The notes under the pieces are model-generated. The model ran no database searches, was not told the DNA's origin, and saw only the letters and a program-made list of their open reading frames with translations. Both the position numbers and the translations under genes were made by a program. A stretch of DNA of 29,277 nucleotides from the IMG/VR virus record IMGVR_UViG_2660238524_000011. One strand, 5' to 3'. Of the stretch, positions 1 through 22,855 are shown one piece after another (position 1 is the first letter of the stretch; the number at the start of each line of letters is the position of its first letter). This DNA is from a virus (taxonomy: Duplodnaviria > Heunggongvirae > Uroviricota > Caudoviricetes).

Positions 1-390
1 TTACTCTTTTTTCTCCGTATCTGCATCGGGTTCATCAGCAAATAGCTTGCCCTGCATCCGATCCAGTTCTTCTTTTCTTACCCGCTTAACCACGCTGTAG
101 ACCCACTGAAGCGAAACACCAAATTTGCGGGCCAGTTCGTGGTGGTTGCGTCCGTTAAACTCCCTGAAGATTTCCCGGTCGCGCTGACTGACCTTCCATA
201 CCATGCCCATCGGGAAATAAACGTTTTGCCCGCCCCAGACCTGCATCATTCGGTTCGCGACGGCCTGACCAATCTGGTCGGCAACTTCGGGCTCAATATC
301 AATAATCTCGCGAACGGTCTCAGAGGTATGCTGTGCCAGTTCCACCAGGAGTTCCGGCCCCTTACTTCGAAACTGATTCAGGTCGCTCAT
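1..390 (-). CDS. mor: Mor-like middle-operon transcriptional activator (Mor/C family)
   Basis: 129 aa, the length I recall for Mu Mor; C-terminal HTH segment GRNHHELARKFGVSLQWVYSVVKRV typical of the Mor/C family. GGGAG RBS 8 nt upstream of ATG at 390. Last gene of the leftward early operon. Confidence 0.7.
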   Translation of the reverse strand: MSDLNQFRSKGPELLVELAQHTSETVREIIDIEPEVADQIGQAVANRMMQVWGGQNVYFPMGMVWKVSQRDREIFREFNGRNHHELARKFGVSLQWVYSVVKRVRKEELDRMQGKLFADEPDADTEKKE

Positions 391-811
391 GTTTGACTCC
401 CGCAGCTCTGCGCTGCCACTTCTTCAGTTTCTCAATAACACTGCTTGCCTGTTCAGTACTGAGCCAGCGCAGGGCGCTGATGCCCGTTTCCCGCTTGATC
501 CACCTCGCTAATGCATTTTCTGAACGGTCACGAACAATGCCGGCAGCAGCCATTTCAAGCCATAGCGCACGAATTTTCCTGGACTGCGGATGGTTATCAA
601 GCGGTAAACCGGAGCTGGCTTTTCTGGCTGGTTTAACGCGAAAGCCTTTCTTTTTCATGGATTCCAGCACGCAGTTTAGTTGTGTGGTATCCATTCCTTT
701 GGTTGAGGCTTTACCGGTCAGCCCCTGTAACATCTGGCGGTAGGTGTCTTCATCCATACCCAGTTCATTACGGGCAATATGGATAAGCTGTATCAGGCGT
801 TTTTTCTGCAT
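362..811 (-). CDS. GemA/gp16-like Mu prophage regulatory protein (DUF1018-like)
   Basis: 149 aa; resembles Mu-like prophage gp16/GemA family from memory. AAGGAG RBS upstream of ATG at 811. 3' end overlaps the mor start by 29 nt. Confidence 0.55.
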   Translation of the reverse strand: MQKKRLIQLIHIARNELGMDEDTYRQMLQGLTGKASTKGMDTTQLNCVLESMKKKGFRVKPARKASSGLPLDNHPQSRKIRALWLEMAAAGIVRDRSENALARWIKRETGISALRWLSTEQASSVIEKLKKWQRRAAGVKHERPESVSK

Positions 812-812
812 A

Positions 813-1019
813 TCATCTCCTTTTTTTCAGTCTGTCGGCAACAATGTCGGTTGCAGCTGGCAGGGTGACTGGCCAGAACAACATGACGGCGGTCATGTAC
901 AGGATGTAATGCGCGGTGTCGTAGTGCCTGCCATAGCCCAGGGAACGATGAAGTCTTGCGCTGCATGATCCTGCGTACATATACCAGAAAAGAAAACAGA
1001 CAATGGTTTCAGTAGTCAT
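813..1019 (-). CDS. small hydrophobic membrane protein (hypothetical)
   Basis: Track ORF 813..1175 trimmed to the internal ATG at 1019, which has a GGAGG RBS 7 nt upstream. Product begins MTTETIVCFLFWYMYAG, predicted transmembrane. Confidence 0.4.
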   Translation of the reverse strand: MTTETIVCFLFWYMYAGSCSARLHRSLGYGRHYDTAHYILYMTAVMLFWPVTLPAATDIVADRLKKRR

Positions 1020-1239
1020 TCTGAATACCTCCCCATTCGATATGAATATTACGGGCAGCAATGACAGGGTCGTTATTCCACCATGCACCTGACATGTATT
1101 TTTCAACCTGTTCGCGTCCGGCAATAACACCAATTGTGATCCCCGGCCTGACGTTCTTAAAAAAGGCGCGGGCAAAAAGGTATCTGGCAGATATTCGGCA
1201 GGCTTTTAATTTCCGGCTTTTACCTGATAGCGTAATCAT
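1009..1239 (-). CDS. hypothetical early protein (76 aa)
   Basis: GGAGG RBS upstream of ATG at 1239. Start overlaps the stop of the upstream gene (ATGA coupling); its stop overlaps the next start. Confidence 0.4.
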   Translation of the reverse strand: MITLSGKSRKLKACRISARYLFARAFFKNVRPGITIGVIAGREQVEKYMSGAWWNNDPVIAARNIHIEWGGIQNDY

Positions 1240-1919
1240 CTGGCCTCCAGTTTCTGTTGTTCCTGCCCACTGACCGGGCGGTGCAGTCTGACGTTCTGCC
1301 CTTCACGAAACCCCGCATAGCGCGAGGCGTCGCCATTGCGGCTTCTTCCCGGTTTACGCGCCCTGGTGGTTTGCGTCTGCGGGTATTTATGTTCCAGCCA
1401 CTGCTGCATCAGTTCACGCTCATCATCGGTCAGGGCAAAGGACTGTATTTCACTGATAACGGCCAGCACCCAGCCTTCGGCAAACTGGTCTCCACGGCTG
1501 GTGCGGGTGGCGGTTTTTATTCTTTTGTTCTGTGCACTGATATACTGCTGACGCGCCTTTTTCAGCTGACGGGCCAGCACTTCCCAGGTGTATGCAGCCA
1601 GTGCCGCACGTTCCCGGTTGCCGTAGAACCCCACAGACGGATGCGTGCCGGGGTGAATGATGGAGTTAACACCAAATACCTCGCGGATGATGTTCATCAG
1701 GCCCAGCATGTAGCGCGGTGGACGGAGACTGCCTGTCGGCCAGTAGTGACTGATGGTTTCATCAATATCACTCATAGCAATGTCGGAATGTGTGATGCCG
1801 TGAACATCCATCAGTTTACGGGCTCGGCGCAGTGCCAGAGCGGCCTCGTGCGGGTTGCCGGATGCGGCCAGCGCCAGCAACTTTTTCAGTTTCTCAATGT
1901 GTTTATTCTGGTCTGTCAT
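1236..1919 (-). CDS. DUF2786-like domain protein
   Basis: Motif LLALAASGNPHEAALALRRARKLMDVHGI matches my recollection of DUF2786. The ATG at 1919 has a GGAGA RBS and overlaps the upstream stop (ATGA); the track start at 1955 lacks an RBS. Confidence 0.5.
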   Translation of the reverse strand: MTDQNKHIEKLKKLLALAASGNPHEAALALRRARKLMDVHGITHSDIAMSDIDETISHYWPTGSLRPPRYMLGLMNIIREVFGVNSIIHPGTHPSVGFYGNRERAALAAYTWEVLARQLKKARQQYISAQNKRIKTATRTSRGDQFAEGWVLAVISEIQSFALTDDERELMQQWLEHKYPQTQTTRARKPGRSRNGDASRYAGFREGQNVRLHRPVSGQEQQKLEAR

Positions 1920-2131
1920 TGTTCTGTATCTCCGGTATTTTTCTGCCGTTTCCATGCCCGGACAGCGTCGGACAGCTCTTTCAGGCTGTATGCTGCTTTA
2001 AGCTTTTCCCATAACCACTGTGTTGTTATGTGCATCAGCAGGGCAGCCAGGGCTGCCCCCGCACTGAGGCATGTCGCCAGGCCAGTAAGAATCAGTGTCC
2101 ATGCGGTGATTTCCCTGAGTATGTCAGCCAT
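1916..2131 (-). CDS. small membrane protein (71 aa, hypothetical)
   Basis: GGGAGG RBS 6 nt upstream of ATG at 2131. Hydrophobic core ITAWTLILTGLATCLSAGAALAALL. Confidence 0.45.
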   Translation of the reverse strand: MADILREITAWTLILTGLATCLSAGAALAALLMHITTQWLWEKLKAAYSLKELSDAVRAWKRQKNTGDTEQ

Positions 2132-2145
2132 TGAATGCCTCCCGG

Positions 2146-2442
2146 TTACTCGTTCGTGTAAATCACGCCCAGTCGTGCAGCCAGACGTTCCAGTTTTTTC
2201 TGTTTGTGGAAGTCAATCAGCCGGTCCATCCCCTGAAGGCGCAGTTGCTCTGTCATGATTTCCACGTCTGCCAGCTCTGCCGCGAGGTCACTTTCGCTGC
2301 CCTGTCCGTTCAGGTTGCGGGCGGCACTGGCCGCCAGTTCAGCGGCCTCTTCTGCCAGTTTCAGGGCCTGTGCGTCCGGCCCGAAACGCTGCAGGGCCAG
2401 ACGGTAGAGGGCGGTGCGGGTGAGTTCGGTGTTTCGTGTCAT
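2146..2442 (-). CDS. hypothetical early protein (98 aa)
   Basis: Co-oriented and tightly spaced within the early operon; Ala/Leu-rich helical protein. Confidence 0.4.
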   Translation of the reverse strand: MTRNTELTRTALYRLALQRFGPDAQALKLAEEAAELAASAARNLNGQGSESDLAAELADVEIMTEQLRLQGMDRLIDFHKQKKLERLAARLGVIYTNE

Positions 2443-2451
2443 GCCGCGCCC

Positions 2452-2724
2452 TCAGTGCTTCCGGCTGACGGTGATGTGCAGGCCGCCTTCTGCAGTGGTT
2501 TCCATCCGGTACGGCACCTCATGCTCTGCCGTGTGGGTGAGTGTGTTCATCAGTACCTGCAGGGCAGCCTCCTTTCCGTTGGTCGCCACAATGGCCTGTG
2601 TGGCCATGCTGATTAGCGCCGTCAGGACGTGCTTCACATCGGTGAGGTCGCGGCATTCACACTCGTTGACATAGTGTTCAACAAGGGTTCGGGTGCGCTG
2701 TCGTGCTTCCTGTGGGGTAATCAT
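2452..2724 (-). CDS. hypothetical early protein (90 aa)
   Basis: Co-oriented and tightly spaced; start overlaps the stop of 2721..2915 (ATGA). Confidence 0.4.
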   Translation of the reverse strand: MITPQEARQRTRTLVEHYVNECECRDLTDVKHVLTALISMATQAIVATNGKEAALQVLMNTLTHTAEHEVPYRMETTAEGGLHITVSRKH

Positions 2725-2915
2725 TGCGAGTCCTCCCTGTCAGGGCGGGAGAATTCCATGACGGGCACGTCTGCCGAAAAATGCTGGCTGCAGTACGGGC
2801 AGACCAGGGTGACGCGTACCGCAGGGATGTGGTATTTACCGGACATCACGGCGATGGCGCTGTGAAAACGCAGGGCTGTTATATCCCTCTCGCACTGAAT
2901 ACATTTAAATATCAT
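2721..2915 (-). CDS. small zinc-ribbon protein (CxxC...CxxC)
   Basis: 64 aa with paired Cys motifs (CIQC ... CPYC). GAGGAG RBS upstream of ATG at 2915. Confidence 0.45.
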   Translation of the reverse strand: MIFKCIQCERDITALRFHSAIAVMSGKYHIPAVRVTLVCPYCSQHFSADVPVMEFSRPDREDSQ

Positions 2916-3012
2916 GATTTAATTCTCCTCTGTTTCCGGCGTGCAGAAGCCCGCGGCGCTGACGTCGGAATAAAAAAGAAAATGTTTTTATTAAATAATT
3001 AACGTGGTGTGT

Positions 3013-3543
3013 TTACTGCACATCCTGCTCAAAAGGAATTATTGAAAAATCCTCAATGTCGCTTTTAATGGAAATACCGGGAATATTTTTCACGGCCTCT
3101 TTTTCATTCAGGATAGCGTCTTTATTTATTTCCTCTTTTACACGAATAAAGCGCTCAAGCCCCAGACGTCTCAGTAATTCAATAACATTATCCGCCCCAC
3201 GGATACTGACTGATGGCGGACGGTTTCGCCACTGCACCTCGCCGGTGGTGAGGTTAGCGAACTTCACCTTCCCGTTGCCGGTCAGTTCATCACGGTGTGC
3301 CTCACACCATGTCTGAATACCGGACTGCAGTTCGGCCATGCGTTTTTTCAGGCTCTCGGTGAGCGGGGCATAACGTGCGGTGATATCGCCAATGGCGTCA
3401 TTCATTTCTGTTTCAGCCCTGACCAGTTCACGTTGTGCGTCACCGAGTAGTCTGATTCCCTCAATGACCTCTTCACGTGTCCCCGGCACCCAGAGTGCTG
3501 CTGCGGCCTTGATACGTTTTGCACCTTTTGTACTTTTTGCCAT
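3013..3543 (-). CDS. gam: Gam-like host-nuclease inhibitor (Mu Gam/Ku-like DNA end-binding protein)
   Basis: 176 aa; N-terminus MAKSTKGAKRIKAAAA and C-terminus GISIKSDIEDFSIIPFEQ closely resemble Mu Gam as I recall it. Confidence 0.8.
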   Translation of the reverse strand: MAKSTKGAKRIKAAAALWVPGTREEVIEGIRLLGDAQRELVRAETEMNDAIGDITARYAPLTESLKKRMAELQSGIQTWCEAHRDELTGNGKVKFANLTTGEVQWRNRPPSVSIRGADNVIELLRRLGLERFIRVKEEINKDAILNEKEAVKNIPGISIKSDIEDFSIIPFEQDVQ

Positions 3544-3570
3544 TTTTTATGATTTCTCCAGTTGTGCTGA

Positions 3571-3840
3571 TTACCACAAAGATTCCGGCCACACGACGCG
3601 ACAGCCGTGCAGTTCGAAAACGCCCTGACGGAAATATCCCCTGTGGTCATGTCCGGTATACAGATAACAGGCCTTTCCCTGCTCAAGCATGCGCATGCAA
3701 TGCGCACTCCGGGAAACGCGGATGACAGGTTTGTTACCCCTGATGGTGATGCTTTGTACATCCGTGTTCGTCGCCTTAAGCGCCATAATGGCTGACTGCA
3801 CTTTGCTGATTTGCTGGTTGATACCTGTGGTGGATTTCAT
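3571..3840 (-). CDS. hypothetical early protein at the position of Mu kil (89 aa)
   Basis: Start lies 2 nt past the B-like stop (TAATAATG context). Function assigned by position only. Confidence 0.35.
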   Translation of the reverse strand: MKSTTGINQQISKVQSAIMALKATNTDVQSITIRGNKPVIRVSRSAHCMRMLEQGKACYLYTGHDHRGYFRQGVFELHGCRVVWPESLW

Positions 3841-3842
3841 TA

Positions 3843-5009
3843 TTAAACCCCTTTGACAACGTCAGCGTTGACCTGTGGAACCCCGATTTCAGCGGCCAGA
3901 TTCATGGCGGCTATTACCAGGTTACTGACGGCCAGCGGATACAGCAGGCTGACCATATTTTTACGGTGACTTCCCGGATTGCTCAGGCGGGCACGTATGG
4001 CATCCACTGCACCGGCGTCCATAATGTCCGTCAGCTGTTTACCGGCCCGTTGCAGTTTGAACGTCAGAAATTCTTCAAGGTTATTGTCCAGAGGCAGAAG
4101 TTCGACCACCTCACAGCGCTGAACGACTTCACGGACTTCCATATTGCGTTCAGACAGTTTTGTCGCCAGTTCCGGCTGGCCAATCAGCACGATGGACAGC
4201 AGTTTTTTGAAACCGGACTCCAGCTCAAAAAAGCGTTTGAGGTGTTTCAGTGTCGGAATGGGCAGACTGTGGGCCTCCTCAATCACCAGAACGTGGCTGA
4301 ACCCCGCCTGGCTGCTGTCTTTCAGGACGCGATGCAACTGGCGAAAACGGGCGTCCTGACTGCGTCTGATGCTTTCCAGTGGTGCGATGGTACTGATAAT
4401 GGCTTCGGCAATAGCTGCTGCCTTCAGGGTTTTCCCTTTCACATCGTTGTCTTCCATAGCGATGATGTATGGCTCGATAACAATTACCGGCGCATTCTCG
4501 CGGTTGATACGTTCAGTCAGGTCGCGGCGCAGCGTGGATTTACCCGCACCGGACTCACCGATGACGGCCATAAACCCACCATGACGGGCTGTCTGGTACA
4601 GCGCCTCACGCACGTAGCGAATGTCCGGGGTGGTGAACACATCATCAGAACCCTGCATGGCTTCGTCGGCGAACGGGTCACGGAAAAGACCAAACGCTTT
4701 TTTGGTTGCTGGAAATAACACCTGTTTTTTGAGTAACATATTCTCTTCCTCACTGAGGCTCGTTTTATCTGTGGTACCCGCTGTACGGGGCGTGGCCGCG
4801 CCCTGTACAGCATCAAAACTCTTCGTTGTATCAATCCCCTGACTTTCCAGCCAGGACGCAAGACGCCGGCGCACTTCTCCGGGGCTGGTGCGGGGCCACG
4901 CGTTATGATTCACAATCTGGGCCAGCGTGGCCTCAGAAACATCGACAGCTCTCGCCACCACCGCCTGTGGAATACGGGCCTCTTTCAGTTGCTGCTTCAG
5001 TACCAGCAT
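3843..5009 (-). CDS. transposition helper ATPase (MuB-like, AAA+ P-loop)
   Basis: Walker A VIGESGAGKST; located immediately downstream of the transposase. GAGGAGG RBS 5 nt upstream of ATG at 5009; the track start at 5048 would overlap the A gene by 29 nt. Confidence 0.7.
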   Translation of the reverse strand: MLVLKQQLKEARIPQAVVARAVDVSEATLAQIVNHNAWPRTSPGEVRRRLASWLESQGIDTTKSFDAVQGAATPRTAGTTDKTSLSEEENMLLKKQVLFPATKKAFGLFRDPFADEAMQGSDDVFTTPDIRYVREALYQTARHGGFMAVIGESGAGKSTLRRDLTERINRENAPVIVIEPYIIAMEDNDVKGKTLKAAAIAEAIISTIAPLESIRRSQDARFRQLHRVLKDSSQAGFSHVLVIEEAHSLPIPTLKHLKRFFELESGFKKLLSIVLIGQPELATKLSERNMEVREVVQRCEVVELLPLDNNLEEFLTFKLQRAGKQLTDIMDAGAVDAIRARLSNPGSHRKNMVSLLYPLAVSNLVIAAMNLAAEIGVPQVNADVVKGV

Positions 5010-5019
5010 GTTTCCCTCC

Positions 5020-6789
5020 TCAGTTGCCGTTAACAATGCTGATAACACTGCTGCGGGCCGGTGTGGTCAGCGTGGCCATGACTTCATCCAGTGCGGCTTC
5101 CGGTACGCCGTCCGGGTACTGTGCCGTTAACTGGCGGTAATGTTCCGGCGTCCAGGTAAGGCCGTCGGCGCTGAACTTATCGCGCAGGGCTTTCGCGGCC
5201 TCCACATGAGTCATGGGACGTTGTTCAGTGCGCGGCCCGCGTACGTCAGAGGCCTGACCACGCTTCGGCATATAGGCCGGAAGTGTGGTGTCGTCGATAT
5301 GTTTATACGGGTCAAGCCGCCCGCCGAACGGCAGCGCCTTCGCCTTGCGTGCGGCGGCTGCATCTGCGGCGTTGTCTGTACCGGTAACCAGCGCTTCGGT
5401 TTCTTTTGCCGCCATCTGTGCCGGGGTTTCCGGCAGGGCTTTGTAACTTTCGCCAAATACCGCCGCGCCTTCAGCAAAGCCAAACTCGTTCTTTCTGACC
5501 TCTTCGACCAGGAAGAACGTCTCGTGGCCGTCCTCACCGGTCAGAACCACCTGTGCCACATCGCTGCGCCATGGGTTACGGGTAATCATCAGTTTTTCAC
5601 CAACCAGTACGCCCGGTACCGTTGATACGTCAAATTCAGTGCCCCGGAACGAGACACGAAGTTTTGGCGTGACTTTGCGGAGTTCTGGTGCCGCCACAGC
5701 CAGTTCACGACATACCTCAACGGAAGGCGCTTTTTTCAGCTGCTCAGCAGTAATCTTCAGCCAGATATCCGTGCGGGTTTTACCGTGGCGGCTGTGAACA
5801 GCCGTGGCGTTAAAGTGGCTGCGCCATTTCGCGGCCAGCGCGTTGAGTTCTTCCAGACTGTGAACCGGCCGGAACTTCAGACCCGGCTCCAGCTTGCGTT
5901 CGATAATGTCACGCGCCTTTTCCACCTGTCCGGTGGCGCGGGCGTTATGCGGCTTGTGCGCTATCAGGTCGATGCCCAGTGAGCGGCACATGTTTTTCGT
6001 CATACCCGCGGTGTTTGCCGAGCCGGGGTCGAGATAGAGTATTTTCGGCACGCCGTGCAGCACGTCTGCGCCGCCACGCTCCTGCATGGCGTTGATAAGC
6101 ACAGAACACAGGTTCTCACCTGATTCCGCGCCCGTCACATACTCAACGTAAATCCAGCCGCTGGCATGGTCGGTAATCTCGTAACTCCACACGCGGTCAC
6201 TGGCGATACGGGCAAGGTTAGCGGGCTTGTTCTTGTAGAACTTCGCGCTGTCCATCACCTGCAGCCCTTTATGTCCATTGCTCAGGTAGTAAAGCGTGCA
6301 GAGTGAGGCGTCAATCTGCCAGACATGATTGGGATGCAGACTGGCCACTTCGGTATGTGGTGCAGGGGCATCCAGTTGTTCCGGGTGCAGGCCATAGTTA
6401 CGCAGAGCACGGCTGATGGCATCTTCAGACAACGGGAAAAACTCACTGGTGGTTTCATCTGTTCTGCCTGCGGTGATAAAGCCGTTAGCCCGCAGGGTTT
6501 CCACTGCATCTGCGATGGAATAGAGACGCTTACCGTTCTTGCGGGTGGCCTCACGCAGTGTGGCAGATATCAGCGCGGCTTCGTCGCGGGTCAGGGCGCT
6601 GCGCCCGGCATCGGCGCGTTTTTTGCGTTTATCAGTCACAGATACCTCCTTCAGCCTGCGCAGCAGAGTGGCGCGGGACATGCCAAGTTCAGCACAGGCA
6701 GCGTCGTATATTGCACCGCGTTTACCATGCCCCGCGTCACGTGCCGCGCGGGCGACATAAACCAGTCGTTCAGTCAGGGCAGCATTCAT
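5020..6789 (-). CDS. DDE transposase (Mu A-like, RNase H-fold integrase core)
   Basis: 589 aa with N-terminal HTH region and candidate DDE residues in HVWQIDAS, LYLDPGSANT and HNARATGQVE. Confidence 0.8.
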   Translation of the reverse strand: MNAALTERLVYVARAARDAGHGKRGAIYDAACAELGMSRATLLRRLKEVSVTDKRKKRADAGRSALTRDEAALISATLREATRKNGKRLYSIADAVETLRANGFITAGRTDETTSEFFPLSEDAISRALRNYGLHPEQLDAPAPHTEVASLHPNHVWQIDASLCTLYYLSNGHKGLQVMDSAKFYKNKPANLARIASDRVWSYEITDHASGWIYVEYVTGAESGENLCSVLINAMQERGGADVLHGVPKILYLDPGSANTAGMTKNMCRSLGIDLIAHKPHNARATGQVEKARDIIERKLEPGLKFRPVHSLEELNALAAKWRSHFNATAVHSRHGKTRTDIWLKITAEQLKKAPSVEVCRELAVAAPELRKVTPKLRVSFRGTEFDVSTVPGVLVGEKLMITRNPWRSDVAQVVLTGEDGHETFFLVEEVRKNEFGFAEGAAVFGESYKALPETPAQMAAKETEALVTGTDNAADAAAARKAKALPFGGRLDPYKHIDDTTLPAYMPKRGQASDVRGPRTEQRPMTHVEAAKALRDKFSADGLTWTPEHYRQLTAQYPDGVPEAALDEVMATLTTPARSSVISIVNGN

Positions 6790-6792
6790 TGG

Positions 6793-7707
6793 TTATGCCT
6801 CCAGCCCGTTAATCTGTGGCGTCGGCTCAGTCAGCCATGAAGGCGCTGCATTGCCTGTTGGCTCGTCCGGCAGGTCAAATGTGGAGCGCAGGCTACGCGC
6901 TGTGCTTTCCAGTTGACAGACCAGGCCTGCCATGAAGTCTCTGGGGGTATCAATCATGTTTTCAGCACAATATGCGCACAGCGTCTCAAAAGCGCTGGAC
7001 AGTCGGACGGCGATAGCAGATTCCGCCTCAACCGCTAATGCTGTTACTTCCGCCCGCAGCTTCTTAACCTCCTCATCAGGCTCAGGCGGCTGAATACGGG
7101 ATTTCTTCTCCAGTCTGGTGGAGAGTGAATCTATTTTTTCATTTTTGTCGGCGAGTACGCGCTGTTGTGCTGCGTTGGTTTCGCGCGCTTCGCGCAGGGC
7201 CTGACGCAATTCACGTACTGACATGCGATCAACGTCGTCAAGCGTCAGGCCGGCAACTGTGCCGCCGTCGGCCAATTCATCAAGTTCTTCATTATCCAGA
7301 ACCATCAGGTCGTACAGTTTGGCTTTCCCCAAAACGCTCAACGTTGAGCGTTTTGTTGGCTCATCACCTTCTCCCAAAAACTTCATACTGGCTTGCATCA
7401 TGCGGCGAGCAACTTGTGGTGCAAGTCCGAGTTCATTTTCTAAAATGTTTGTAAAATCACCGTGTGGCTCATTTTCTTTTAAGATGATCAGCCGCTTACC
7501 CGCTTCCAGCATAGATTCAGCACTCTGCGCCATATAAAAACGTGCTTCGTGAACAATGCGATCACGTTCATAAGGCAGTCCATCACCAAACTGCTGCATA
7601 ATTTCCATGCGATGCTGTGTCATAGCGTTCAAATTGACATTGATGTTATCTGACAGCGGAACCTCAACATTCAGTTCAGTGTTAACGGGTGATTTGGTGC
7701 GTCCCAT
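6793..7707 (-). CDS. conserved Mu-like early protein (304 aa, coiled-coil; copy 1)
   Basis: Immediately upstream of the A gene; paralog at 11101..12021 (about 85% identity by eye). Acidic and coiled-coil rich. Confidence 0.55.
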   Translation of the reverse strand: MGRTKSPVNTELNVEVPLSDNINVNLNAMTQHRMEIMQQFGDGLPYERDRIVHEARFYMAQSAESMLEAGKRLIILKENEPHGDFTNILENELGLAPQVARRMMQASMKFLGEGDEPTKRSTLSVLGKAKLYDLMVLDNEELDELADGGTVAGLTLDDVDRMSVRELRQALREARETNAAQQRVLADKNEKIDSLSTRLEKKSRIQPPEPDEEVKKLRAEVTALAVEAESAIAVRLSSAFETLCAYCAENMIDTPRDFMAGLVCQLESTARSLRSTFDLPDEPTGNAAPSWLTEPTPQINGLEA

Positions 7708-7717
7708 TGATTACTCC

Positions 7718-8026
7718 TTACAAACGACTACCTGAAATAACTCGTTGGTTGATTTCGTTAATACGATCCTGTGCACGCGCCATCTCGTGACTGTGAGCCA
7801 TGGCGATCTGTAGTAACTGGATTCCCGGTGCGAAACGTCCGTTCTCTAATTTCATGGCCAGTCCCTCTTCAATAAGGGTATTAAGTGCTCGATTGATATT
7901 CGCCGGGGACTCCCCCAGGGCTGATGCCAGTTCACCGTTAGAAACACCGTTCAGAGCATGACCGCGTAGAGCTTTGAGTACACGTAGGATGCGGGTCCCA
8001 GAACTGGAAATATTTACTTTACTCAT
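7718..8026 (-). CDS. winged-helix HTH DNA-binding protein (copy 1)
   Basis: Track ORF 7718..8089 trimmed to the ATG at 8026 (MSKVNISSSGTRILRVLKALRGH) by analogy with copy 2. HTH-like segment NGELASALGESPANINRALNTLIEEG. Confidence 0.5.
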   Translation of the reverse strand: MSKVNISSSGTRILRVLKALRGHALNGVSNGELASALGESPANINRALNTLIEEGLAMKLENGRFAPGIQLLQIAMAHSHEMARAQDRINEINQRVISGSRL

Positions 8027-8078
8027 GTCACATTTCCATTTTTGCAATATGTGATAACCTGTTGCATATGTGGAAAAT

Positions 8079-8267
8079 TTATGCCGCATTTGACGTGGGT
8101 TTTAATCCCAGTTTTACGGCAATTTCATGGGCTTTGCCGTAACGAGCTTTGGTCTGTCCATTGAGAACACGATAGACCTCATTGCGGCTGTAGCCGTGTT
8201 CTTCGGCCCAGCGGGTAAACGTGATACCACGCTGACGGAAGAGATTTTTAACTTGTTCGGAAGTCAT
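8079..8267 (-). CDS. Ner-like small DNA-binding regulator (first gene of early operon, copy 1)
   Basis: 62 aa with HTH segment GITFTRWAEEHGYSRNEVYRVLNG. Divergent from the repressor gene and first gene of the leftward operon. Confidence 0.55.
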   Translation of the reverse strand: MTSEQVKNLFRQRGITFTRWAEEHGYSRNEVYRVLNGQTKARYGKAHEIAVKLGLKPTSNAA

Positions 8268-8353
8268 TGTTGTCTCCTTTGTTGATGCAATGATGTTTGT
8301 TTTATATGTGATAGATTATGAGAACTATTGTTCTCATTGTCAATGAGGTTTAT
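8268..8353. promoter_or_regulatory. divergent promoter/operator region 1, with palindrome ATGAGAAC-N4-GTTCTCAT at 8318-8337
   Basis: Perfect 8-bp inverted repeat with 4-bp spacer read directly from the sequence, between divergent Ner-like and repressor genes. TTGATG at 8282-8287 is a possible -35 element. Confidence 0.5.
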
Positions 8354-8779
8354 GTGAATTTTGATTCTCTTTGCGCGTCGCGGTTCAAAGCTGAGCGTTC
8401 GCGGTTATCACTCAAGCAGGCTGAAGTAGCAGCCCTTTGTGGCGTTTCAAGAGAAATGTGGGGGAAATATGAACGAGGGGTTGCTGTTCCCGGAGGTGAG
8501 TTACTTGCAGCCTTTGCAAGAATTGGGGCCAATGTACAGTTCATTCTTACCGGGGAGTCATCAGGTATAACTTTATCACGTGATGAAATGGAGTTACTGC
8601 AGCACTACCGGCAGGCACCATTACAGGTCAAAGGTTCAGTTTTGTCGGCCTTGACTACTGGCTCCTCCAGAGAACGGGCGGAACAGGTTATTCATGGAGA
8701 TGTTCTGGGGAATGTTATCAAAGGTAACGTAACCATAGGAACAGGTGGAATAATGAACAAAAATACCAAGAGAAGATGA
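8318..8779 (+). CDS. XRE/Cro-CI-type HTH repressor (immunity repressor 1)
   Basis: HTH LSLKQAEVAALCGVSREMWGKYERG. The track ATG at 8318 lies inside the operator palindrome and lacks an RBS; in-frame GTG at 8354 preceded by GAGG is an alternative start. Stop overlaps the next start (ATGA). Confidence 0.65.
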   Translation: MRTIVLIVNEVYVNFDSLCASRFKAERSRLSLKQAEVAALCGVSREMWGKYERGVAVPGGELLAAFARIGANVQFILTGESSGITLSRDEMELLQHYRQAPLQVKGSVLSALTTGSSRERAEQVIHGDVLGNVIKGNVTIGTGGIMNKNTKRR

Positions 8780-9762
8780 GTAAAGAGAAGCAAACAGTTA
8801 ACGGGGATGTGGGTAACGTTGTCAGCGGTGATGTTACCATTCATAACTATTCTGCTGACATACTTCCTTCGGCCCAGCAACCAATTTCGTTGCTGCAAAA
8901 ACGCGATTTACACAGATTGATGGATGAATTGGTTGATCTGGGGGAAAGTAAGCGCGAGCTATGGATGACGATCCACACGAAACTTAATACCAAAACAGTT
9001 AATGAAATGACTGCGGCTGATTATCATGGTGCGGTTGAGATCCTTCAGAGATATGCACAACAGATCCAGAATATGAAGGACTGTAATCTTCTGGTCAGCA
9101 AAATAATGGCGCTTACTGACCCTGGGTATCGTCTTGACCGTGACAGATACTGTCTGAAGCATTTCGGTACAACCCATCTTAAAGGCCTAGACAAAGAGCA
9201 GTTGCAGGCTGTGTTTGGTTATTTTGATGATCTGCTGAATATTCGTGATGAGAGTAAAACTCTATCACCTCCATCGGAAAGCGGTGCAAAATCAGTCGCA
9301 ACTGTACCAACCAGAAGCCGGAAGCCTCATGTAGTAGTGTTGGGGGGAGTGTTAGTTCTTGTAGCAATATTTTTCGTGGGAATGATTGTGTTCGCTGGTA
9401 AATGGGGAAATGCCAAAGCAGTAGCTTCTACTGAAACCAGCGTTTTTAACATTAAAACCAACGATAAAATAATAGAAGATTCCATCCCCGCACTGCGCAG
9501 CATGTTTCCAGGGTTAAATAAGTACTCAGATGATTTCCATTCGGTTTCAAGCTACAAGCAAAAAACGGGCTGGCATACCCTTAAATTTACTGTATCAGCA
9601 AAGGCATCCGTCCCCGAAAATTATAGTGTTAAGGGCAAGGTTTGTTACATTAACATAAGCCCTGATGGTAGTTATGCTCGGGTTTTGACTGCTCCATGTC
9701 GTTCACTGCTACTTGATCAGCAAAGCACTCCTGACAGTAAATACCGTTTTATTCTTAAATAG
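8776..9762 (+). CDS. membrane-anchored protein of unknown function (328 aa)
   Basis: Single hydrophobic segment VVVLGGVLVLVAIFFVGMIVFAG between a roughly 165-aa N-terminal domain and a roughly 120-aa C-terminal domain. Visibly AT-rich relative to neighbours. Confidence 0.55.
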   Translation: MSKEKQTVNGDVGNVVSGDVTIHNYSADILPSAQQPISLLQKRDLHRLMDELVDLGESKRELWMTIHTKLNTKTVNEMTAADYHGAVEILQRYAQQIQNMKDCNLLVSKIMALTDPGYRLDRDRYCLKHFGTTHLKGLDKEQLQAVFGYFDDLLNIRDESKTLSPPSESGAKSVATVPTRSRKPHVVVLGGVLVLVAIFFVGMIVFAGKWGNAKAVASTETSVFNIKTNDKIIEDSIPALRSMFPGLNKYSDDFHSVSSYKQKTGWHTLKFTVSAKASVPENYSVKGKVCYINISPDGSYARVLTAPCRSLLLDQQSTPDSKYRFILK

Positions 9763-9843
9763 AAAATAACAGCTGAATTACCATGGGATCAGAAAAAAGA
9801 CAAAGGCGGCATCATGCTGCGTTCTGAAATTTTAATGTAAAAG

Positions 9844-10434
9844 GTGATGAACATGGCAGGGATTCAGGTTATCGCAGGAAGTTTTCCTAAAGGGTGGGCA
9901 AGCATGGGGTTCGGTACCATCGTGTTTGCCAAAAAACCAAAACAAGGCTTTCCTGAAAATATTGTATTAAATCTGAAAGAAGAGCTTTTATCGATTGAAC
10001 TTGCGGATAGTGAAGAGGAAAGCCGTATAGGTAAGGCGGCAGGCGCAGGTTTGCTTGGTGGATTAATCTTTGGTGGTGCAGGGTTGGTCATTGGAGGTTT
10101 GCTTGGTGCGGCGGACAAGACGAAAAAAACTATCACTTTTAAGGCAATGTTTACGGGAAATAGGTTACTTCTGGCTAAAACAGATTCAAAAACTTTTGTA
10201 AAACTTCAGTCAATTGCTGCTGATAATGCCCATAACGCATCTGTAATCAACATGAAGCAAACTAACAGGGGCGATGTTTCTTCTCGTAAACAACTAACAG
10301 AAAATCCACAGCAGCAAGACTTACCTGCGCCCGCTACAACAGTAAAAATGACTGCCAAAGATAAGTTAGAATCGGCTCTTGGGCTGGGAATCATCGTTAT
10401 AGCTGTTTGGGCAATAATACACTTCTTTTTTTAG
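9844..10434 (+). CDS. glycine-zipper membrane protein of unknown function
   Basis: Gly-rich segment GAGLLGGLIFGGAGLVIGGLLGAA and C-terminal hydrophobic helix. Likely start is the ATG at 9853, preceded by AAGG. Confidence 0.5.
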   Translation: MMNMAGIQVIAGSFPKGWASMGFGTIVFAKKPKQGFPENIVLNLKEELLSIELADSEEESRIGKAAGAGLLGGLIFGGAGLVIGGLLGAADKTKKTITFKAMFTGNRLLLAKTDSKTFVKLQSIAADNAHNASVINMKQTNRGDVSSRKQLTENPQQQDLPAPATTVKMTAKDKLESALGLGIIVIAVWAIIHFFF

Positions 10435-10435
10435 T

Positions 10436-10460
10436 GCAGCCCTTCAGGGCTGTTTCTGTT
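10436..10460 (+). terminator. putative intrinsic terminator
   Basis: Hairpin GCAGCCC-ttca-GGGCTG (stem one side one base longer) followed by TTTCTGTT, directly after the stop of 9844..10434. Confidence 0.5.
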
Positions 10461-10471
10461 CAGGAGGTATC

Positions 10472-10768
10472 TTAAGGATTATCCGGGGCGTTTTCCTGTT
10501 TGCCGTACTTCGGAGACGAACAACATTCTGTTGGCTGACCGGTGAGTTTACGTAACTCCTTCATGAGCAGCTCCTGATCGTAAACTGTCATCAGTGCCGC
10601 AATGGTGGCATGCAGTGCATCGGGCAGTATCCAGGGACGCAGCAGAGTGGCGCGGGACATGCCAAGTTCAGCACAGGCAGCGTCGTATATTGCACCGCGT
10701 TTACCATGCCCCGCGTCACGTGCCGCGCGGGCTGTTTCAACCAGTTTTTCAGTCAGTGCCGGGGTCAT
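10472..10768 (-). pseudogene. chimeric in-frame fusion: transposase N-terminus (44 aa) joined to an internal fragment of the P-loop gene
   Basis: 10638-10732 is identical to 6659-6753 (A gene 5' region). 10493-10636 matches 14970-15113 with 3 mismatches in 144 bp. Product is MTPALTEKL...SRATLL followed by RPWILPDALHATIAALM. Confidence 0.55.
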
Positions 10769-10783
10769 AGCTTGTCTTCCCTG

Positions 10784-11101
10784 TTATCCGATTCTGGCGG
10801 CAATTTTTCTGGCGAGGTCGCACAGTGTTTCGCCATCGCAGGTTTTCACCACGGTATTTACCGGTTGCGGTGCAACTACCGGGCGTAATGCTGACTGATT
10901 CTGCAGACGTCTTATCTGCTGCATCAGCATCACCTCCATCGTCAGTACAAACGGGTGCGTCTCCTGTGCGGGTACGCAGATTTCACCGGAAGGGGTCACC
11001 ACGCGGAAACCCTGCACCATCTCCGGCAGCAGATTACACAGTGCGTGCCCCAGTGCCTCCGGGCTGTCCATCAGGGTATTTTGTGTGTTATTCGTATTCA
11101 T
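10784..11101 (-). CDS. hypothetical protein (105 aa), present only in control module 2
   Basis: Start abuts the stop of 11101..12021. No counterpart between the 304-aa gene and A in copy 1. Confidence 0.35.
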   Translation of the reverse strand: MNTNNTQNTLMDSPEALGHALCNLLPEMVQGFRVVTPSGEICVPAQETHPFVLTMEVMLMQQIRRLQNQSALRPVVAPQPVNTVVKTCDGETLCDLARKIAARIG

Positions 11102-12021
11102 TACTGCATATCCTCCGGTCGGTTGATTTCAGGTTCCGGTTCGGTCAGCCAGGCGGGGGCATCGTTACCCGATGGAGCGGCCTCAAGGTCAAACGTCTCA
11201 CGTAATGCATGAACACTGCGTTCAATCTGGCAGACCAGACCGGCCATGAAATCTCTGGGGGTATCGATCATGTTTTTGGTGCAGTATTCACACAGGGTCT
11301 CAAAAACACTGGACAGCCGGACGGCGATAGCCGATTCGGCCTCAACCGCTAATGCCGTCACTTCCGCCCGCAATTTTTTCAGTTCTTCGTCTGGCGGCGG
11401 AGGTTGCAGGCGCGATTTCTTCTCCAGTTTTGTGGCCAGTTCGTTGATTTTTTCGTCCTTTCCGGCAAGCACCTGTTGCTGAGCTGCGTTGGTTTCGCGC
11501 GCTTCACGCAGGGCGGCCTTCAGTTCGCGGCTGGTCATGCGATCAATATCATCAAGCGTTGCACCGGCGACGGTTCCACCATCAGCTAATGCGTCGAGTT
11601 CTTCGTCATCCAGAACCATCAGTTCATATAACTTGGTTTTTCCCAAAACGCTCAGCGCTGAGCGTTTTGGCTGTTCATCTCCATTGCCGAGAAATTTCAC
11701 GCTGGCCTGCATCATGCGACGAGCTACCTGTGGTGCTAATCCGAGGTCGTTTTCCAGAATATTTGTGAAATCACCATGCGGTTCATTTTCTTTTAAGATG
11801 ATCAGCCGCTTACCCGCTTCCAACATAGATTCAGCACTCTGCGCCATATAAAAACGTGCTTCGTGAACGATGCGTTCACGTTCATAAGGCAGTCCATCAC
11901 CAAACTGCTGCATGATCTCCATGCGATGCTGTGTCATGGCATTCAGGCTGACGTTGAGATCATCCGACAGCGGTACATCGGCGTTCAGTTCAGTGTTAAT
12001 CGGTGATTTGGTACGTCCCAT
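11101..12021 (-). CDS. conserved Mu-like early protein (306 aa; copy 2)
   Basis: Paralog of 6793..7707. Confidence 0.55.
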   Translation of the reverse strand: MGRTKSPINTELNADVPLSDDLNVSLNAMTQHRMEIMQQFGDGLPYERERIVHEARFYMAQSAESMLEAGKRLIILKENEPHGDFTNILENDLGLAPQVARRMMQASVKFLGNGDEQPKRSALSVLGKTKLYELMVLDDEELDALADGGTVAGATLDDIDRMTSRELKAALREARETNAAQQQVLAGKDEKINELATKLEKKSRLQPPPPDEELKKLRAEVTALAVEAESAIAVRLSSVFETLCEYCTKNMIDTPRDFMAGLVCQIERSVHALRETFDLEAAPSGNDAPAWLTEPEPEINRPEDMQ

Positions 12022-12031
12022 TGATTACTCC

Positions 12032-12340
12032 TTACAAACGACTACCTGAAATGACACGTTGGTTAATTTCGTTAATACGATCCTGTGCACGTGCCATCTC
12101 GTTACTGTGGGCCATGGCGATCTGCAGTAACTGGATGCCCGGTGCAAAACGTCCGTTCTCCAGTTTCAGAGCCAGCCCTTCTTCAATGAGGGTGTTGAGT
12201 GCCCGGTTGATGTTTGCCGGTGACTCGTGCAGTGCTGTCGCCAGTTCACCGTTAGAAATACCGTTCAGGGCATGACCGCGCAGCGCTTTGAGTACCCGGA
12301 GGATGCGACTGCCGGAGCTTGAAACATTCGTCTTACTCAT
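12032..12340 (-). CDS. winged-helix HTH DNA-binding protein (copy 2)
   Basis: Paralog of 7718..8026. Start at the ATG at 12340 (MSK...) with AGAGG RBS 7 nt upstream. Confidence 0.5.
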   Translation of the reverse strand: MSKTNVSSSGSRILRVLKALRGHALNGISNGELATALHESPANINRALNTLIEEGLALKLENGRFAPGIQLLQIAMAHSNEMARAQDRINEINQRVISGSRL

Positions 12341-12392
12341 CTGCATACCTCTTTTGCGATATGTGATAACCTTTTACAAAGACTCAAAATAT

Positions 12393-12581
12393 TTAGGCCG
12401 CCTGAGCTGTTGATTTCAGTCCCAACTTCACGGCGATTTCATGGGATTTACCGTAACGGGCTTTGGTCTGCCCGTTGAGAACGCGGTATACCTCATTGCG
12501 GTTGTAGCCGTTTTCTTCTGCCCAGCGGGTGAAAGTGATCCCGCGCTGGCGGAAGAGAGCTTTGACTTGTTCTGCAGTCAT
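12393..12581 (-). CDS. Ner-like small DNA-binding regulator (copy 2)
   Basis: 62 aa, about 87% identical to 8079..8267. Confidence 0.55.
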   Translation of the reverse strand: MTAEQVKALFRQRGITFTRWAEENGYNRNEVYRVLNGQTKARYGKSHEIAVKLGLKSTAQAA

Positions 12582-12674
12582 CGTTGTCTCCTTTGTTGAT
12601 GCAATGATGTTTGCCTTATATGTGTTAGATTATTGCTCATAATTATGAGCATATCAAGATAGAGATTCACTTTT
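12582..12674. promoter_or_regulatory. divergent promoter/operator region 2, with 18-bp palindrome TGCTCATAATTATGAGCA at 12634-12651
   Basis: Perfect palindrome read from the sequence; a third half-site TATGAGCA overlaps the repressor 2 start codon at 12674-12681. Confidence 0.5.
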
Positions 12675-13031
12675 ATGAGCAAAGATATAGGAGAGCGCGT
12701 TATTTCTGTGAGGAAGAAAGCAGGGTTGAACCAGAGAGAATTTGCAGCTCGTTTAGGTATTTCTAATGGTGGTATCAGTCAGATTGAAAATGGAAAGGCG
12801 ATGCCTGGAGGGGAGTTTCTGTTAAAGATGCATCAAGAGTTTAATGTTGATGTAAATTGGTTGCTCACTGGAATGAGCACAGATGGTATGACTAGAAACC
12901 AGAATCAAATTTCCCCAGAAAAACAAAAACTAATAGATACTTTTGACGACATGACACCAGACCAACAACGCTCATTTCTTGAGATTGGGCGATTCTATAC
13001 TCAGCCAAAACCAGGAAAAATCGCAGGCTGA
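12675..13031 (+). CDS. XRE-type HTH repressor (immunity repressor 2)
   Basis: HTH LNQREFAARLGISNGGISQIENG. Unrelated to repressor 1 outside the HTH core. Confidence 0.65.
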   Translation: MSKDIGERVISVRKKAGLNQREFAARLGISNGGISQIENGKAMPGGEFLLKMHQEFNVDVNWLLTGMSTDGMTRNQNQISPEKQKLIDTFDDMTPDQQRSFLEIGRFYTQPKPGKIAG

Positions 13032-13116
13032 TACTGACCCGGACACAAAGGACAGGTGGTTGATCTGGATGCTTTCAGAAAACATCGCCAGTGACATAGT
13101 GGAAGTTGTTTGGTTT

Positions 13117-13148
13117 ACCGGAAAGCATTGTGCTTTCCGGTTTTGTTT
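13117..13148 (+). terminator. putative intrinsic terminator
   Basis: 10-bp stem ACCGGAAAGC/GCTTTCCGGT with 5-nt loop, followed by TTTTGTTT. Downstream of repressor 2 and abutting the Dam stop codon. Confidence 0.55.
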
Positions 13149-13910
13149 CAGAAGTTGCAGATTAGCAGTTCACGGCGCGGCGTGGGTTTACCCGCCAGAC
13201 TGTAGTTGATATTCACTGTCTGTATGTTCAGTCCAGTGAACACCTCGCGCATCTGCGGGATGTCGTTCACCGAAATTATCATTTTTCCTCTGATGCACCG
13301 GGCCAGCTCTGCCAGCCGCGAGTAGTTCCCTTCAGGAAAATCCACACCATAGCCTTCCGTACCCAGGTACGGTGGGTCGCAGTAGAACAGCGTGTGCGGA
13401 CGATCATAACGCTCAATGCACTGTTGCCAGTCCATGTGTTCTATGACTGTTCTGGAAAGCCGCAGGTGTGCCGCTGACAGTTCTTCTTCAATACGTAGCA
13501 GGTTGAAGCGTGGCGGGGATGTGGTGGAGGTACCGAAGCTGTGCTCTGCCACCTTGCCGCCAAACGCCTGCTTCTGAAGGTAGTAGAACCGTGCCGCACG
13601 CTGGATATCCGTCAGTGTTTCTTCCGGGGTGATCTGCAGCCATTTGTAGATCTGACGGCTGACCAGCGCCCATTTGAACTGGCGGACAAATTCTTCCAGG
13701 TGATGCTTTACCACCCGGTACAGATTCACCAGTTCACCGTTGATATCATTGATGACTTCGATCTTGCCGGGTGTCTTAAGAAAATAGAGCGCTGCTGCCC
13801 CACAAAACGGCTCCACATAACATTCATGCGCCGGAAACAGCGGCAGAATGTGTTTTGCAAGGCGGCGTTTGCCACCAATCCACGGCACGATGGGTAATGT
13901 CTGCATTTTC
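13148..13910 (-). CDS. dam: DNA adenine methyltransferase (Dam-like, D12-class N6-MTase)
   Basis: DPPY catalytic motif (FYCDPPYLG) and N-terminal SAM-binding region (IVPWIGGKRR ... VEPFCGAAA). Track ORF trimmed to the ATG at 13910 (MKMQTLPIVPW). Confidence 0.75.
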
Positions 13911-14102
13911 ATAATCTGCAAGCCTTTTACAATTATTAAAAAATATGGCAGTCTGGTCAGGTCTCGCGAGACTGACTGAACCTTGGTCGGCTCACAGCGC
14001 ATTCCTGTGGGGCGATGACCAGCCCGGCTTTCGGGTGCCGGGCTGGTCGTTCTTTCATGATGCGGCAGGGATGGCGGGATTTCTGTTAATGTGGTTTAGG
14101 GA

Positions 14103-15425: not shown

Positions 15426-15555
15426 ATCGTATTCTCCTCTGTGAATAATTCATCGTTTATCCTGCACATCCCGTATCCCCGGCTCTCTTAACGCGCTTTA
15501 AAATCCTTCGCGCCCTGTATTTGTGATGCTGTCTCCACCAGATAAGGAGACACAC

Positions 15556-15906: not shown

Positions 15907-15908
15907 TC

Positions 15909-22352: not shown

Positions 22353-22354
22353 CA

Positions 22355-22813: not shown

Positions 22814-22855
22814 GTTTTCTCTCTTCAGGCGGGTGATTTATCATTGCCAGCGAAT

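Follow-up and report, generated by a model that had tools for sequence, protein, structure and literature searches.

A BcepMu-type early operon in a transposable prophage of Escherichia coli, beside a partial second copy probably created by scaffolding

Positions 1-8267 of the window (the whole stretch of viral DNA analysed here, 29,277 nucleotides) very probably represent the early operon, for regulation, transposition and replication, of an E. coli transposable prophage that is of BcepMu type (genus Bcepmuvirus), the neighbouring partial copy at 10638-12657 being a scaffolding artefact (probability about 0.9 for this reading). The similarity of its products places the operon in the lineage of BcepMu, as Mu-like in a broad sense only and not Mu proper. 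It is already known: the DNA of the element is 99.9% identical to that of Escherichia phage PhiKM (PQ738613), classified in Bcepmuvirus, with 99.9-100% identity across PhiKM and E. coli prophages, and, among 5426 complete E. coli genomes, 645 (~12%) contain matching sequences. Because this prophage type is common, annotated and classified, the biology of the operon matters little in itself.

Results

Sixteen leftward genes make up the early operon

Sixteen open reading frames (ORFs), all intact, run from 8267 down to 1 (Table 1), and the order ends with Gam, then the small ORFs, GemA and Mor. This agrees with a previous sequence-only reading, which had put all the early genes that it named on the minus strand, but which counted six small ORFs where there are seven, one of them encoding 227 aa (DUF2786/DUF7168). 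Each of these seven matches one PHROG family (E 1e-34 to 1e-56). For the winged-HTH gene, the longest ORF extends to 8089, and the start is annotated at 8026 in relatives.

Table 1. Coordinates in the window of the early operon, its control region, the scaffold joint and the second partial early region.
Feature	Position	Strand	Basis
First early gene, 62-aa HTH, BcepMu gp16 family, position of Mu ner	8079-8267	-	TIGR04111, phrog_925, tblastn
102-aa IclR/MarR-like winged-HTH regulator, BcepMu gp12 homologue	7718-8026	-	34% identity
304-aa DUF3102 protein, BcepMu gp10 homologue	6793-7707	-	Pfam DUF3102; 40.5% identity
589-aa DDE (rve) transposase, BcepMu/Tn552 type	5020-6789	-	Pfam rve, phrog_310, BcepMu gp09 similarity
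388-aa AAA_22 (ExeA/TniB-like) transposition ATPase	3843-5009	-	Pfam, phrog_296, BcepMu gp08 similarity
89-aa ORF in 'kil position', phrog_2041	3571-3840	-	PHROG match
Gam, host-nuclease inhibitor	3013-3543	-	Pfam 1e-40; 61.5% identical to Mu Gam
64-aa ORF	2721-2915	-	PHROG match
90-aa ORF	2452-2724	-	PHROG match
98-aa MazG-like ORF	2146-2442	-	PHROG match
71-aa ORF	1916-2131	-	PHROG match
227-aa DUF2786/DUF7168 ORF	1236-1919	-	PHROG match
76-aa ORF	1009-1239	-	PHROG match
68-aa ORF	813-1019	-	PHROG match
GemA (Mu gp16 family)	362-811	-	Pfam 8e-41; 44% to BcepMu counterpart, 36% to Mu GemA
Mor/C-family late-transcription activator, last operon gene	1-390	-	Pfam 1e-43; 54% to BcepMu, 30-32% to Mu Mor
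Predicted early promoter Pe, TTGACA-17-CATAAT, 11/12 consensus matches	8315-8343	-	Consensus scan only
Perfect palindrome GAGAAC-TATT-GTTCTC within Pe spacer	8320-8335	.	Only exact copy in window
Divergent cI/Cro-type HTH repressor Rep1, 153 aa	8318-8779	+	38.5% identical to BcepMu gp17
95 nt identical to 15019-15113	10542-10636	.	Contig end, K-1 bases into shared right arm
Scaffold joint: single N in source record (GCA_001030365.1, KQ087679.1), A in window	10637	.
95 nt identical to 6659-6753	10638-10732	.	Contig end, K-1 bases into shared left arm (transposase gene 5' part)
Second prophage (PhiKM type), immunity-proximal early part, outside operon under study	10733-12657	-	ORFs, promoter scan
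105-aa ORF, second prophage	10784-11101	-
DUF3102 gene, second copy	11101-12021	-
Winged-HTH gene, second copy	12032-12340	-
gp16-family gene, second copy	12393-12581	-
Predicted Pe2 with palindrome TGCTCAT-AATT-ATGAGCA	12629-12657	-	Consensus scan

The 15 junctions have gaps, from the first gene on, of 52, 10, 3, 10, 2, 27, 97, -4, 9, 14, -4, -4, -11, 1 and -29 nt, i.e., 10 nt or less at 11 of them (overlaps included), and a GGAG-like ribosome-binding site lies upstream of each start. The stop/start overlaps reported earlier are present as ATGA at 1236-1239, 1916-1919 and 2721-2724, whereas 3840-3845 reads TAA-TA-ATG, with a 2-nt spacer. Gene spacing suggests that the early genes may be translationally coupled, although tight packing is not peculiar to them: the late genes, on the plus strand from about 15523, are spaced equally closely (gaps of 2, -17, -4, -1, -1, -20, 2 and so on in a near-identical relative). 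The early genes are thus transcribed away from the late ones, as the sequence-only reading had pointed out in contrast to Mu, but this divergence is a published hallmark of BcepMu-like viruses (PMC2771037) and not new.

The transposition genes resemble those of BcepMu rather than those of Mu

A tblastn comparison with BcepMu (NC_005882) finds homologues whose order follows that of BcepMu genes 1-17. The 62-aa HTH protein scores 94.4 bits against TIGR04111 (BcepMu_gp16; cutoff 34) and is 45% identical to BcepMu gp16. The transposase matches Pfam rve (1e-8; 35.8 bits, cutoff 32.6) and phrog_310 (2e-147), and shares 68% identity with BcepMu gp09 over 581 aa, full length (tblastn), including the motifs WQID (D160), LYLD (D254) and GQVE (E290). 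In DDE transposases the catalytic residues are D, D and E, the last two separated by about 35 residues; D160, D254 and E290 are, by motif, the candidate catalytic residues. The ATPase matches AAA_22 (Pfam, 4e-20) and phrog_296 (DNA transposition protein, 8e-93), is 59% identical to BcepMu gp08, and is the predicted functional analogue of MuB.

The chance that the element is a true member of Muvirus (Mu, D108), having a MuA/MuB system and an inverted early region, appears vanishingly small. Its Gam, GemA and Mor resemble the Mu proteins to the degrees given in Table 1, and the gene order is like that of Mu (ner-A-B-kil-...-gam-...-gemA-mor). However, these are the only Mu early proteins with a tblastn match at E<=1e-3, none being obtained for MuA, MuB, Ner, c or Kil; no Mu-specific Pfam domains, such as the DNA-binding and C-terminal domains of MuA, were found in the transposase or ATPase, and neither MuA nor MuB was matched by sequence in the PDB. 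The near relationship of the transposase to gp09, the divergence of early and late genes and a target duplication of 6 bp, not 5 bp (see below), likewise speak against Muvirus, which the tblastn, Pfam, PDB and target-duplication tests refute. Since Mu Ner and Kil have no tblastn match here, 'Ner-like' and 'kil-position' are positional labels only. What holds of the earlier view is that this is the early operon of a Mu-like transposable phage, with products matching early families of Mu and BcepMu (Pfam, PHROG, NCBIfam and tblastn).

Related prophages end in TG...CA and are flanked by 6-bp duplications

The window lacks both prophage ends, which were read in two near-identical relatives as TGATTAGACTTGAG...GCGGCGCATCA, of the TG...CA type; the left end (TGATTAGACTTGAG...) lies 163 bp past window position 1. 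The relatives are flanked by 6-bp target duplications at unrelated insertion sites, CCTGGG (in gspL) and TTCTTC (ycaL-aroA spacer). Of the terminal TG...CA repeats and 5-bp duplication that the sequence-only reading had proposed to look for, the repeats are therefore present while the duplication measures 6 bp, both as seen in the relatives' ends and not in this copy. Whole relative prophages span about 36-37 kb, and some carry IS insertions.

These observations bear on the possibility that the prophage is temperate but depends on an integrase, or is a decayed remnant, and that the transposase is an unrelated insertion sequence. Weak NCBIfam matches of the transposase to IS481 and IS21, far under the cutoffs, and the IS insertions in some relatives would agree with it, but the transposase is closely spaced within a conserved 16-gene operon that is syntenic with BcepMu and has 16 of 16 ORFs intact, and complete prophages, inserted at different sites, have TG...CA termini flanked by 6-bp duplications. 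Neither an absence of Mu-family similarity nor an integrase with an att site, the two findings named earlier as contrary to a transposable phage, was encountered, and no tyrosine integrase occurs in the window or the relatives' annotation; an integrase-dependent prophage or a remnant is extremely unlikely. The only recombinase in relatives is a small 'recombinase family protein' adjoining tail-fibre genes.

The control region suggests a repressed, polycistronic operon

Pe is the sole strong sigma-70-like site upstream of the operon on the minus strand in a consensus scan, although the promoter and operator scans gave total hit counts no higher than in shuffled sequence. The palindrome in its spacer is a candidate operator of the divergent repressor. 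By analogy with Mu and BcepMu, and on the strength of these scans, in a lysogen the cI-type repressor (8318-8779) may bind this palindrome within Pe (8315-8343) and keep the operon silent, and induction would yield a single leftward polycistronic transcript. The first products would be three regulatory or accessory proteins, i.e., the gp16-family HTH protein in ner position, the IclR-like winged-HTH protein and the DUF3102 protein, followed by the DDE transposase with the AAA+ ATPase as its partner; by the same analogy these two would carry out integration and replicative transposition between TG...CA ends with 6-bp target duplications. Gam, which would shield linear DNA ends, and the run of small accessory genes would come next, and finally GemA and the Mor/C-family activator would be made, the latter presumably activating the lysis, head and tail genes that run rightward beyond the immunity region.

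A second partial early region lies across a one-base scaffold joint

Beyond position 10637 stands the immunity-proximal early part of a second, PhiKM-type prophage, including only the first 12 transposase codons. In the source record the joint is a single N. The repeat on either side of it is exactly 95 nt long, and both times base 96 is the first to mismatch. For this reason it is most likely that the source genome carries two separate prophages, with near-identical arms and different immunity modules, collapsed into one scaffold. The 95/95 pattern corresponds to K-1 for K=96 (assembler and k-mer size deduced from the pattern), and scaffolding would have set the two immunity modules of the co-resident prophages in series across the one-N joint. 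The prophage of strain E41-1 (NZ_CP028483) has no mismatches to window positions 1-6753, nor has that of M9682-C1 (NZ_CP024275) to 6644-10636, and the native M9682-C1 prophage is collinear with 981-10636, ungapped. The window is itself a scaffold that merges two related prophages; since the arms were collapsed, 1-6753 and 6754-8267 may come from different prophage copies.

A tandem duplication of two immunity types was the first impression, but the N and the 95-nt repeat on each side speak strongly against it. It is highly unlikely that the serial arrangement is real, as one hybrid prophage that received two immunity modules in tandem by illegitimate recombination of heteroimmune relatives, in which case Pe2 would read through a repressor gene in antisense and on into the same transposition operon. 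Such a hybrid could accommodate two modules that are both complete and that match natural prophages at 100% or 99.9% identity, a fused 98-aa ORF that is in frame at the joint, and control regions with different palindromes and repressors sharing only 36% identity. Yet the junction base is N, the 95-nt repeats mark the places where two de Bruijn contigs end and not a sequenced junction, and there is no microhomology. The fusion ORF appears in one public assembly only; three collections contain neither the junction 28-mer nor any contig with the junction, and no complete E. coli genome spans it (0 of 634 with these sequences). A tandem prophage would also measure roughly 41 kb against ~36-37 kb in relatives, which would probably be a problem for a headful packager. 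That the modules form a dual-immunity hybrid, with two different repressors and two serial early promoters that supply a single transposition operon, immune to both parental types, the N being merely an uncalled base, is very improbable indeed. Two collapsed prophages, by contrast, have natural counterparts: some genomes, e.g., strain p11B (H28 and H52), hold both immunity types at separate loci.

Discussion

E. coli BcepMu-type prophages comprise at least two immunity types that are able to share a cell. The types are distinguished by the repressor (36% identity) and by the palindrome within the early promoter, whereas their transposition genes are nearly identical. Pairs of co-resident prophages mislead short-read scaffolders, so that variable modules are written in series, and 'duplicated' or 'hybrid' prophage regions in draft genomes should be checked for single-N joints with K-1 bases of repeat alongside.

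Comparison with known systems

PhiKM and the E41-1 and M9682-C1 prophages have the same 16 early genes, in the same order, with the divergent repressor and the late genes. No biological difference separates the present element from them; the window only lines up two immunity modules, one from each of two prophages of this type, across a scaffold N.

In BcepMu, genes 1-13 lie on the bottom strand and 17-52 on the top strand, with a Tn552/IS1604-type transposase and terminal CA (PMC2771037; PMC2628397). The same two-cluster plan is found here: regulators, transposase and small genes extend to the left end, with GemA and Mor last, and lysis, head and P2-like tail genes occupy the opposite strand, with lysogeny control between them. 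As in Bcepmuvirus, the gp16-family HTH gene and a divergent cI-type gp17 homologue lie at the interface, the latter followed by a membrane protein and next by holin and SLT endolysin (55-61% identity). Also shared, as read in near-identical relatives, are TG...CA termini and insertion at different sites with a short target duplication. In this genus, replicative transposition and headful packaging would leave random host sequence flanking the virion DNA. The E. coli element differs in having Mu-type Gam and other small genes in place of BcepMu gp03-gp05, for which the annotation gives SSB-like, HU-like DNA-binding and DUF3164 proteins, in lacking gp11 and gp13-15, and, in its relatives, in a recombinase gene beside opposed tail-fibre genes, which BcepMu reportedly lacks.

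With Mu the element shares functional logic and the order regulator, transposase, ATPase, small genes, Gam, GemA, Mor, as well as integration by transposition and TG...CA ends, while its transposase, ATPase, ner-position protein and repressor have no similarity to their Mu counterparts. Mu transcribes early, middle and late genes in one direction and makes a 5-bp target duplication; here, the early genes read toward the nearby genome end, away from the late genes, and in the window no second Mor/C paralogue is seen in a middle operon of its own.

Tn552/IS1604 and TniA-TniB modules likewise pair an rve DDE transposase with an AAA_22-type ATPase (the family placement being made via BcepMu annotation and the literature), but here the transposition module belongs to a tailed-phage genome of ~37 kb. 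Finally, Pseudomonas phages B3 and D3112, which are siphoviruses with a Mu-like collinear layout, resemble the present element in that a DUF3102 gene and genes for HTH regulators precede the transposase; to this element B3 shows 66.6% DNA identity over about 1.1 kb.

Gene content and lineage of the early operon

ORF listing, junction analysis and Pfam searches bear out the minus-strand early operon of the sequence-only reading, with 16 intact ORFs running from 8267 down to 1, all on the minus strand; DUF3102, DUF2786/DUF7168 and HTH domains are likewise matched among the products.

Features of the early operon and two genes of the second immunity module
Feature	Coordinates	Strand	Match
62-aa HTH	8079-8267	-	
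102-aa winged HTH	7718-8026	-	
DUF3102 protein, 304 aa	6793-7707	-	
Transposase, 589 aa	5020-6789	-	Pfam rve 1e-8, above cutoff
ATPase, 388 aa	3843-5009	-	Pfam AAA_22 4e-20
89-aa ORF	3571-3840	-	
Gam	3013-3543	-	Pfam 1e-40
Seven ORFs (64, 90, 98, 71, 227, 76, 68 aa)	813-2915	-	
GemA	362-811	-	Pfam 8e-41
Mor	1-390	-	Pfam 1e-43
105-aa ORF (second module)	10784-11101	-	phrog_5446
Dam-type DNA adenine methylase (second module)	13148-14002	-	PADLOC MTase_II, 9e-112

Eleven of the 15 junctions overlap or are separated by at most 10 nt, the remaining four measuring 52, 27, 97 and 14 nt. Three of the four ATGA overlaps described previously are exact, while the fourth (3840-3845) reads TAA-TA-ATG, with a 2-nt spacer. 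Because a near-identical relative spaces its late genes equally tightly, this spacing is normal phage economy and no special property of the operon. Neither promoter nor terminator was called in the largest intergenic gap, which is A/T-rich and follows Gam (2916-3012), and the plus-strand ORF that the annotation of Escherichia phage PhiKM (PQ738613) places across it (window 2781-3002) is probably spurious. The small ORFs each fall in an existing PHROGs family of unknown function, except the 98-aa ORF of the operon, whose match is to the C-terminal portion of a family of MazG-like NTP pyrophosphohydrolases. An Rfam scan of the whole window returned zero families at threshold, and PADLOC, run on the unknown ORFs, matched the Dam methylase alone.

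Over 1-6780 and 10638-29277, the window shares 99.9% identity with PhiKM (taxonomy Bcepmuvirus), and 645 of the 5426 complete E. coli genomes contain related DNA. By tblastn, the transposase (68%), ATPase (59%), Mor (54%), gp16 (45%), GemA (44%), DUF3102 protein (40.5%), repressor (38.5%) and winged HTH (34%) match Burkholderia phage BcepMu, collinear with its genes 1-17, and the ner-position protein belongs to the BcepMu_gp16 family (TIGR04111, 94.4 bits versus a cutoff of 34). The candidate catalytic residues of the transposase (D160, D254 and E290) are kept in BcepMu gp09, as seen by motif comparison. Matches to Mu are limited to Gam (61.5%), GemA (36%) and Mor/C (30-32%), with no tblastn match of MuA, MuB, Ner, c or Kil to the window at E<=1e-3; searched against PDB sequences, the transposase and ATPase gave marginal matches only (E-values >0.003), MuA and MuB structures not among them. 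Based on the identity to PhiKM, the BcepMu matches and the missing similarity to MuA, MuB, Ner, c and Kil, the element is a transposable phage of BcepMu type whose Gam is of Mu type. The earlier Mu-like interpretation therefore holds for a transposable-phage early operon, but the lineage is that of BcepMu and not Mu proper. For Gam itself, no match was found in the BcepMu early region, and this distribution indicates mosaic exchange among enterobacterial phages of the Mu and BcepMu types.

Late genes (holin, SLT endolysin, spanins, terminase, portal, head, sheath and tube) lie on the plus strand from ~15523, and the divergence of early and late genes, unlike in Mu, was correctly recognized from the start.

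Control region

A consensus scan identifies a single strong sigma-70-like site, TTGACA-17-CATAAT, at 8343-8315 on the minus strand (predicted early promoter Pe), with a perfect palindrome, GAGAAC-TATT-GTTCTC (8320-8335), inside its spacer, and a divergent cI-type repressor gene begins at 8318. Pe excepted, promoters and terminators scanned for within the operon do not rise above shuffled expectation. Gene content, order, homology and ends are read directly; if the parallel with Mu and BcepMu holds, the repressor would shut Pe, and induction would yield one leftward transcript encoding regulators, then transposase and ATPase, Gam, accessory proteins, GemA and last Mor, which would then switch on the rightward late genes.

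The repressor gene overlaps a 328-aa ORF by ATGA, followed by a 196-aa ORF (8318-10434, plus strand), and GC falls to 42-44% across this segment. The 328-aa protein has a weak Flk N-terminal match, while the 196-aa ORF has hydrophobic glycine-rich stretches and is followed by a terminator-like hairpin (10436-10453). The ORFs of the segment have no PADLOC matches; it may serve as a cargo or exclusion cassette expressed in the lysogen, resembling BcepMu gp17-gp18.

Prophage ends and transposition

Both prophage ends lie outside the window, position 1 being the Mor stop codon, and the search for terminal TG...CA proposed earlier was run on relatives. The prophage of E. coli E41-1 (NZ_CP028483), with zero mismatches to window 1-6753, has a left end TGATTAGACTTGAG..., 163 bp left of Mor, and a right end ...GCGGCGCATCA, flanked on both sides by TTCTTC at a site between ycaL and aroA. 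The prophage of M9682-C1 (NZ_CP024275), with zero mismatches to window 6644-10636, has the same ends, flanked by CCTGGG, and interrupts gspL. These relatives sit at two unrelated sites, end in TG...CA and are flanked by 6-bp duplications, all of which points to transposition rather than site-specific integration; the duplication is longer than the Mu-like 5 bp anticipated previously. The left end has GATAAATG plus the related GATATTTATG, and GATAAATG occurs twice, inverted, at the right end; these repeats are candidate transposase-binding sites.

In several strains, IS elements are inserted into this prophage (strain Ec-U4, i.e., genome match H10; matches H6-H8; locus L004, 17254-19670). ISEc23 lies in the large-terminase gene region, and one strain has ISEcp1, together with blaCTX-M-15, inside the matched early or immunity region.

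Two immunity types and the junction at 10637

Repeat analysis and ORFs reveal a second gene set at 10638-12581 (gp16-family gene, winged HTH, DUF3102, 105-aa ORF and 44 transposase codons), with its own promoter-like site, palindrome (TGCTCAT-AATT-ATGAGCA) and a different repressor. The two control regions (8268-8343 and 12582-12657) are about 85-90% identical beside the gp16-family gene, each promoter spacer having its own perfect palindrome (GAGAAC-N4-GTTCTC versus TGCTCAT-N4-ATGAGCA), and the proteins of the two sets are 87% (gp16-family), 92% (winged HTH) and 83% (DUF3102) identical, but the repressors only 36%. Judged from these comparisons, two immunity types are present in the window. 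The 105-aa ORF, between DUF3102 and transposase, occurs only in the PhiKM-type prophage, the other type having a 3-nt gap there; the methylase, between repressor and lysis genes, is likewise part of the PhiKM-type module and absent from the other.

Window 6780-10637 is missing from PhiKM and native to 98 E. coli genomes. The truncated second transposase forms a fusion with the 3' end of a gene that elsewhere occupies 14697-15425. A tandem heteroimmune hybrid formed by recent illegitimate recombination was at first appealing, given a 100% match to both parents and a unique junction: its 28-mer had no hits in genome, viral and metagenome contigs, and a BLAST search of E. coli genomes with the junction was likewise empty. 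However, the source record (GCA_001030365.1, scaffold KQ087679.1) equals the window except for one N at 10637, the junction base, and the 95 nt on each side are repeat ends (10542-10636 identical to 15019-15113, 10638-10732 to 6659-6753, each with a mismatch at base 96), which leads us to reject the hybrid. The junction has no microhomology. Transposition of one prophage into the other is also rejected, as the junction coincides with neither a TG nor a CA end but falls inside a gene.

A one-N join of two contigs, each reaching K-1 = 95 bases into a repeat, is the product of a K=96 de Bruijn assembler (the value presumably used) plus scaffolder, a pattern arising where a module in the interior is the sole difference between two copies of a repeat. 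Position 10637 is thus a scaffold joint at which the immunity modules of two prophages were written one after the other, and the 98-aa fusion ORF (10472-10768) is a fake created by it. Given the one-N joint and the 95-base repeat ends on each side, the source genome most likely holds two separate prophages, one per immunity type, with their shared arms collapsed; strain p11B has both types at separate loci (H28 and H52). The operon as drawn is faithful to the native arrangement, since over 981-10636 it aligns with M9682-C1 collinearly and without gaps.

Relation to known transposable phages

Reports of BcepMu-type prophages in E. coli are routine and extend to UPEC and ST131; the operon holds nothing new, and the only surprise nearby is an assembly artefact. 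The position of the 98-aa MazG-like ORF is occupied in BcepMu by the pyrophosphatase gp06. In relatives, a 'recombinase family protein' is annotated beside opposed tail-fibre and tail-fibre-assembly genes (L003, 5714-9082; L004, 38437-41735; right end, beyond the window), which suggests an invertible host-range segment, unlike BcepMu, reported without one. Finally, the two immunity types resemble the heteroimmune pair Mu and D108.
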